Part shown: in pieces, positions 150 through 1,198 of the stretch
How the letters are laid out: each line of letters begins with the position of its first letter
Position numbering within the stretch: position 1 is the stretch's first letter
Source of the DNA: Escherichia coli
Lineage (GTDB): Bacteria > Pseudomonadota > Gammaproteobacteria > Enterobacterales > Enterobacteriaceae
DNA length: 1,198 nt
Direction: 5' to 3' (one strand)
NCBI RefSeq assembly: GCF_003334765.1
Contig: NZ_QOWT01000083.1
Program-made: the position numbers and the translations under genes
Notes under the pieces: generated by a model
Database searches by the model: none
What the model saw: only the letters and a program-made list of their open reading frames with translations
What the model was told of the DNA's origin: nothing

Positions 150-1166
150 TTAGTGAGATCTCTCCCACTGACGTATCATTTGGTCCGCCCGAAACAGGTT
201 GGCCAGCGTGAATAACATCGCCAGTTGGTTATCGTTTTTCAGCAACCCCTTGTATCTGGCTTTCACGAAGCCGAACTGTCGCTTGATGATGCGAAATGGG
301 TGCTCCACCTTGGCCCGGATGCTGGCTTTCATGTATTCGATGTTGATGGCCGTTTTGTTCTTGCGTGGATGCTGTTTCAAGGTTCTTACCTTGCCGGGGC
401 GCTCGGCGATCAGCCAGTCCACATCCACCTCGGCCAGCTCCTCGCGCTGTGGCGCCCCTTGGTAGCCGGCATCGGCTGAGACAAATTGCTCCTCTCCATG
501 CAGCAGATTACCCAGCTGATTGAGGTCATGCTCGTTGGCCGCGGTGGTGACTAGGCTGTGGGTCAGGCCACTCTTGGCATCGACACCAATGTGGGCCTTC
601 ATGCCAAAGTGCCACTGATTGCCTTTCTTGGTCTGATGCATCTCCGGATCGCGTTGCTGCTCTTTGTTCTTGGTCGAGCTGGGTGCCTCAATGATGGTGG
701 CATCGACCAAGGTGCCTTGAGTCATCATGACGCCTGCTTCGGCCAGCCAGCGATTGATGGTCTTGAACAATTGGCGGGCCAGTTGATGCTGCTCCAGCAG
801 GTGGCGGAAATTCATGATGGTGGTGCGGTCCGGCAAGGCGCTATCCAGGGATAACCGGGCAAACAGACGCATGGAGGCGATTTCGTACAGAGCATCTTCC
901 ATCGCGCCATCGCTCAGGTTGTACCAATGCTGCATGCAGTGAATGCGTAGCATGGTTTCCAGCGGATAAGGTCGCCGGCCATTACCAGCCTTGGGGTAAA
1001 ACGGCTCGATGACTTCCACCATGTTTTGCCATGGCAGAATCTGCTCCATGCGGGACAAGAAAATCTCTTTTCTGGTCTGACGGCGCTTACTGCTGAATTC
1101 ACTGTCGGCGAAGGTAAGTTGATGACTCATGATGAACCCTGTTCCATGGCTCCAGATGACAAACAT
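150..1166 (-). CDS. insH: IS5 transposase InsH (Ins5A), DDE-type; 338 codons from ATG at 1166..1164 to TAA at 152..150; alternative start at ATG 1130..1128 would give 326 aa ([12 protein letters not shown]...)
   Basis: Seen in sequence: uninterrupted 1017-nt ORF on the minus strand, verified codon by codon at both ends. Established knowledge: the translation is recognisably IS5 InsH, with IS4/IS5-type catalytic motifs: D155 in 'LVDATII' (codon 702..704), D232 in 'SADAGYQG' (codon 471..473), E288 in '[12 protein letters not shown]' (codon 303..305, R-x3-E-x6-K). Which ATG is used cannot be decided from sequence; neither has a strong Shine-Dalgarno. Confidence 0.95.
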
Positions 1167-1182
1167 GATCTCATATCAGGGA

Positions 1183-1198
1183 CTTGTTCGCACCTTCC
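1183..1198. repeat. IS5 terminal inverted repeat, transposase-proximal end (16 bp; + strand CTTGTTCGCACCTTCC)
   Basis: Reverse complement GGAAGGTGCGAACAAG pairs with 4..19 at 15 of 16 positions. The element terminus coincides with the last base of the window. Confidence 0.9.

Follow-up and report, generated by a model that had tools for sequence, protein, structure and literature searches.

The window, that is, the whole 1,198-nt stretch of Escherichia coli DNA analysed here, is filled by a complete copy of IS5 that lies on the minus strand and measures 1195 bp from end to end; a window coordinate is converted to an IS5 position p by p = 1199 - window coordinate. Over all 1198 nt the window is 99.9% identical to loci in E. 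coli genomes that carry the annotation 'IS5-like element IS5 family transposase', and the best-matching copy differs from it once only, at a site remote from the left-end control region (IS5 nt 1099). The left terminal inverted repeat (IRL; GGAAGGTGCGAACAAG; 1183..1198, minus strand) has a terminus that is conserved across relatives and pairs with window positions 4..19, the two repeats (1198..1183 and 4..19) being 16 nt long with one mismatch (94% complementary). They match the 16-bp imperfect terminal inverted repeats, GGAAGGTGCGAA(C/T)AAG, that have been described for the ends of IS5 (PMC11677980). Flanking DNA occurs within the window at one end only (positions 1..3) and reads TTA on the element strand, which is compatible with TTAG/CTAA; the target duplication of IS5 is 4 bp, C-T/A-A-G/A.

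When compared with copies in E. coli K-12, the window differs at 5/1195 nt from IS5B (the nmpC copy) and at 4/1195 nt from IS5H (the cobU/yoeG copy). The window copy belongs to the IS5H-like variant line, with a G where IS5B has A at window 1145 (IS5 nt 54), R274K in the transposase and three more single-base differences that are either outside the coding sequence or synonymous; the G at window 1145, also present in K-12 IS5H, creates the motif CCATGG. Besides window 1145, the sites noted for this line are window 310 (IS5 nt 889), 552, 100 and 29. None of the variant positions touches the -35 or -10 elements, the transcription start or either of the two ATG codons discussed below. For the cobU/yoeG copy of K-12, transposition was not seen, and five mismatches and a change written 'R74K' are reported (PMC11677980). 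An identical 326-aa protein is encoded in Yersinia, Klebsiella, Citrobacter, Phytobacter and Aeromonas genomes (loci L002-L006), and this spread across genera suggests that the IS5H-like variant moves or, at the least, is widespread.

The longest open reading frame of the element (1166..150, minus strand) would encode 338 aa from its first in-frame ATG (1164..1166, minus strand), a codon that we do not regard as the natural start, given its position upstream of the mapped transcription start and its lack of conservation. As the initial annotation had described it, the first base of this ATG is the 17th nucleotide past the inner edge of the repeat, so that 16 nt (1182..1167) separate the two. 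A second ATG (1130..1128), in frame and 12 codons downstream, yields 326 aa and, as that annotation had also stated, is the annotated start of InsH, both in RefSeq/PGAP and in the K-12 MG1655 records insH2 and insH6. The ins5A / insH coding sequence is placed at 150..1130 (minus strand; 326 aa plus stop) on the basis of the RefSeq annotation, an exact protein match, family models and conservation of the start. The exact match is to the UniRef entry 'Transposase InsH for insertion sequence element IS5H', to which the 326-aa protein is identical residue for residue, and the family assignment is that of a DDE transposase of the IS5 family (NCBIfam NF033581, transpos_IS5_4, 365.5 bits over the full model length with a cut-off of 140 bits; Pfam domains DUF772 and DDE_Tnp_1). 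In the numbering of the 338-aa form, the NCBIfam model starts at residue 36 and Pfam at residue 63, and neither is informative on the choice of start. Public databases contain both the 326-aa and the exact 338-aa sequences, the cluster of the latter having 2234 members, shorter forms included. Upstream of the second ATG, 15 sense codons are open after an in-frame TGA (1178..1176), and the first ATG is simply the first one in that stretch; its presence is unremarkable and needs no special explanation.

Native promoter and transcription start

The start and promoter biology of IS5 have already been published, and the low expression of the transposase is explained there. Zhang, Saier and colleagues (NAR 2025; PMC11894529) define the ins5A promoter (Pins5A, or PIS) as the first 68 bp of IS5, with a -10 element 'gatcat' and, 17 bp upstream in the left repeat, a proposed -35 element 'gtgcga' that was assigned by the spacing rule only. 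All of the published parts are present in the window at the stated spacing (IS5 6-11 for the -35, 29-34 for the -10 and 42 for the start). The proposed -35, GTGCGA (1188..1193, minus strand), whose position and 17-nt spacing were recomputed here, lies inside the IRL and matches TTGACA at 3/6 positions, so that the suggestion of a promoter overlapping the repeat, made in the initial annotation, agrees with the published assignment. The -10 hexamer GATCAT (1170..1165) overlaps the first ATG (1166..1164).

Transcription has been mapped by 5' RACE to an 'A' in two studies (PMC11894529; PMC11677980), in the first of which it is placed one nucleotide downstream of a 'C' found by primer extension; in the account of the primer-extension work (Sawers 2005) that is given in PMC11894529, transcripts started at this C (IS5 41, window 1158) and at a T. 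The second study, by Onstead et al. (PMC11677980), found the same 'A' in wild-type cells as a faint product, with 11 copies pooled. PMC11894529 numbers the IS5 part of the promoter from -41 to +30, so that +1 falls on the A after C41 (IS5 nt 42), at window position 1157 (minus strand); this coordinate is derived from the numbering in the figure legend rather than from the figure itself, and it is consistent with the positions of the -35 and -10 and with the 14-bp gap to a Crp site centred at -61.5. A 27-nt 5' untranslated leader (1157..1131, minus strand) follows, with a Shine-Dalgarno-like AGGG at 1140..1137 that is weak by its anti-SD energy. Because transcription starts at 1157, past the first ATG, only the 326-aa protein can be made from native transcripts. 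A mapped start downstream of 1166 had been named in advance as the observation that excludes the longer form, and the published start falls on that side of the ATG at 1166..1164.

The initial annotation had also found no good -35/-10 pair in the leader, and the scans performed here bear this out. A consensus scan of the whole window returned 0 sigma-70-like sites (0.8 expected in shuffles), and when all hexamer pairs with 15-19-nt spacers were scored at the left end, none exceeded 8/12, the best at the normal 17-nt spacing being 7/12. Among the pairs with normal spacing, only GTGCGA-17-GATCAT (7/12) carries a TGn prefix. Two other candidates were set aside: TTGTCA (IS5 37-42), which matches the -35 consensus at 5/6 positions, has no usable -10 at 15-19 nt, and a sigma-54 site reported for insH3 (PMC4591121) is beyond the limits of the element, 204 bp upstream of the gene, and is irrelevant to an internal promoter.

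The TGn prefix belongs to an extended -10, TGaGATCAT (1165..1173, minus strand; TG at 1173..1172, hexamer at 1170..1165), of which the hexamer comes from PMC11894529 and the TGn was found here. The pattern TGnGAnnAT occurs in 29/29 distinct gammaproteobacterial relatives, 34-45 nt upstream of the start codon, with a -10 that is mostly GACAAT or GATAAT. This conservation, a comparison of left ends, independently supports the -10 assignment and suggests that the ins5A promoter relies on the extended -10 and not on the poor -35. Several more distant IS5-group relatives from betaproteobacteria (L070-L081) have GATCAT about 6 nt nearer the terminus; L070-L081 are without TGnGAnnAT at the equivalent place and have a strong AAGGAG-type Shine-Dalgarno sequence, and their promoter layout may be different from that of IS5. 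A Dam site, GATC, lies at 1170..1167, inside the -10 hexamer. The hexamer GATCAT with its GATC is confined to IS5 and its 7 closest distinct relatives, and the A -> C change at the fourth hexamer position both weakens the -10 and creates the Dam site. PMC11894529 makes no mention of an extended -10 or of methylation, and neither that paper nor a full-text literature search yielded a test or report of Dam control of IS5; such control of the native promoter is a lead only, drawn by analogy with other elements. Conservation of the TGn prefix as part of an extended -10, and the presence of a Dam GATC within the hexamer, are thus small additions to what PMC11894529 contains.

Flanking DNA and the supply of transposase

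Published experiments have shown not only where ins5A transcription starts but also that the promoter is weak and that expression depends on read-through or on an activator. The native promoter is essentially silent alone, and consensus hexamers raise its activity more than 200-fold (PMC11894529; reporter design in PMC11043490), which accords with the low transposase expression proposed in the initial annotation. At fucAO, the IS5 core promoter is active only through a flanking Crp site, with which it forms a hybrid promoter (PMC11894529). Dependence on read-through from flanking DNA, which that annotation had raised as well, was demonstrated by Onstead et al. (PMC11677980): a strong nmpC/IS5 fusion transcript arises from PnmpC and is detectable only for the IS5 copy inside nmpC, IS5 transposition decreases when PnmpC is deleted or blocked, and transposition is proportional to promoter strength when a titratable promoter stands in place of PnmpC. 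In K-12, detectable ins5A mRNA and most transposition accordingly come from nmpC read-through or from the Crp-activated hybrid promoter (PMC11677980, PMC11894529). In the K-12 nmpC::IS5B locus (L082), the interrupted nmpC ORF enters IS5 and ends at a TGA at IS5 26-28 (the equivalent of window 1171..1173), 4 nt before the first ATG, so that ribosomes on the fusion mRNA are released at the IS5 leader.

Fold-back occlusion of the start in read-through RNA, in the style of IS10 and IS50, was considered and receives no support from predicted folding, in which the ribosome-binding region of the second ATG is about 0.5 unpaired in the native, IS-only and nmpC-fusion RNAs alike. The absence of predicted occlusion agrees with the stimulation of IS5 transposition by read-through. 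An Rfam scan of the window gave nothing meaningful; its sole match (E = 0.77, far under the gathering score) lies elsewhere in the window.

Comparison of left ends and the choice of start codon

To compare left ends, one genome per species was scanned, which gave 80 loci encoding transposases of 57-100% aa identity and a sample of 42 distinct left ends. The codon equivalent to the second ATG is ATG in 41/42 relatives and GTG in the remaining one. An in-frame stop lies no more than 12 codons upstream of it in 26/42, while any upstream in-frame ATG occurs in only 9/42, at varying positions. Within the sequences sampled, this comparison shows that the second ATG and the -10 motif are conserved and that the first ATG is not.

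The most instructive relative is an ISKpn26-like element, which shares with IS5 a transposase of 98% identity, a terminus-to-start distance of 68 nt, the TGAGATCAT motif and the IRL, and which nevertheless has ATC where IS5 has its first ATG. Nucleotide identity between the two is 31/32 over IS5 1-32 (the repeat and -10 region), falls to 19/36 over 33-68, where 17/36 leader positions differ, and returns to 270/300 (90%), with 97/100 aa identical, in the first 100 codons of the gene; of the 12 extension residues, one side of the comparison reads IIFIRSASQRDI. The drop at 33-68 followed by the rise in the gene indicates that coding constraint begins exactly at the second ATG, and that the 12-codon extension diverges like non-coding DNA. 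Ribosome-binding signals point the same way, with an anti-SD duplex energy of -4.0 kcal/mol at the second ATG versus -2.7 at the first. The Shine-Dalgarno sequence of IS5 is itself weak: a value of -4.0 kcal/mol or better is reached by 30% of all ATGs in the element, the equivalent codons of relatives average -5.1 kcal/mol, and the conserved start of the ISKpn26-like element has -6.3 kcal/mol. This weakness fits low expression. We infer from the mapped transcription start together with the comparison that translation starts at 1130..1128, a choice between two starts that the initial annotation had left open and that is settled by these two lines of evidence; no N-terminal protein data on Ins5A were found in the searchable literature.

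Three alternatives to a single start at the second ATG were weighed. The one that survives best, though it is very unlikely, is that both starts are used, the 326-aa protein being made from native transcripts and a 338-aa isoform from read-through transcripts only, with a distinct, for example regulatory, role comparable to that of Tnp and Inh in IS50. In Tn5, IS50 gives rise to T1 and T2 transcripts, with a start lying between the start codons. IS5 resembles this arrangement in having a transcription start between its two ATGs, downstream of the first start codon. Like IS10 and IS50, it also has a weak transposase promoter near the element end whose -10 contains a Dam site (GATC), a trait of the Dam-regulated transposase promoters of the IS10/IS50/IS903 type. 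Roberts et al. in 1985 and Yin et al. in 1988 are said to have described the control of the IS10 and IS50 transposases, including Dam control through the GATC of the -10. The nmpC ORF of K-12, ending 4 nt before the first ATG, would moreover deliver ribosomes adjacent to it, and neither start is occluded in the predicted folding. Against two isoforms stand the loss of the first ATG even in the closest relatives, the evolution of the extension as non-coding sequence, the weak Shine-Dalgarno sequence before that ATG and the fact that the IS5 literature examined offers no experimental hint of them. A codon that is not conserved makes a dedicated function of the 338-aa form improbable to about the same degree, although a minor 338-aa product of read-through transcripts is possible. 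IS10 and IS50, for their part, belong to a different family (IS4) without sequence relationship to IS5, and their RNA structure suppresses translation from read-through, whereas read-through stimulates IS5 transposition (PMC11677980). Dam control and a two-isoform system would apply to IS5 by analogy only; that a context-dependent two-isoform system operates in parallel with Dam hemimethylation tying the native promoter to replication seems equally far-fetched. If two isoforms were made, copies transcribed from outside, such as that in nmpC, would additionally produce a 338-aa form with a different activity.

That translation truly begins at the first ATG (1166..1164) and gives a 338-aa transposase is less probable still, and is already largely refuted. 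This ATG does open the longest ORF, its exact product is deposited in public databases, and it is carried on read-through transcripts, the main transposase source in K-12. The transcription start at 1157 is nonetheless downstream of it and the -10 overlaps it, the ISKpn26-like element lacks it despite a 98% identical transposase, the frame above the second ATG is stopped within 12 codons in 26 of the 42 relatives, the 12 extra codons have little more than half of their nucleotides in common with that element as against 90% in the gene, the Shine-Dalgarno sequence is the weaker of the two, and the extension falls outside the family models. The 338-aa reading arises as an artefact when the longest ORF is picked.

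We give just as little credence to the proposal that transposase translation is coupled to a short uORF through an ATGA overlap at the second ATG. Two such uORFs can be drawn on the minus strand, one of 15 codons (ATG 1174..1172 to TGA 1129..1127, with the ATGA overlap) and, in this variant, one of 6 codons that is out of frame and lies on the native leader (ATG 1147..1145 to TGA 1129..1127). The overlap is present, and it survives together with the 15-codon uORF in the ISKpn26-like element despite 17 substitutions; it is not kept in other relatives, and the uORF coupling was set aside. The ATG at 1174 precedes the point where native transcripts begin, the length, frame and stop of the uORF vary freely among 29 relatives (from 2 to more than 100 codons), and the ATG at 1147 hangs on one polymorphic base, position 1145, with G here and A in K-12 IS5B. 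The conserved 'ATG' is better explained by the TGn extended -10, and the 15-codon uORF probably arises incidentally from the conserved ATGAGA/TGn motif.

A context-dependent reading of IS5 expression

The reading that we favour, with high confidence as a whole, combines a poor native promoter, a start at A1157, a 326-aa transposase made from the second ATG and a supply that depends on context. Transcription begins at A1157 (IS5 nt 42), driven by a sigma-70 promoter of very low quality, and the native mRNA, with its 27-nt leader, would be translated from the ATG at 1130..1128 into the 326-aa Ins5A/InsH. The promoter being nearly silent alone, supply depends mainly on what precedes each copy, either through host read-through (nmpC in K-12) or through an activator site (Crp at fucAO). 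Such a context-dependent supply keeps transposition low and tied to genomic position.

These features matter because IS5 contributes heavily to adaptive mutation by insertion in E. coli, as in bgl, flhDC, fucAO and glpFK. A near-silent promoter explains why only IS5 copies that lie behind host promoters act as donors, and a start at the second ATG explains why gene callers disagree between 326 and 338 aa. The practical value of the analysis is limited to the correct start for annotation and to two candidate details of the promoter, the TGn motif and the Dam site.
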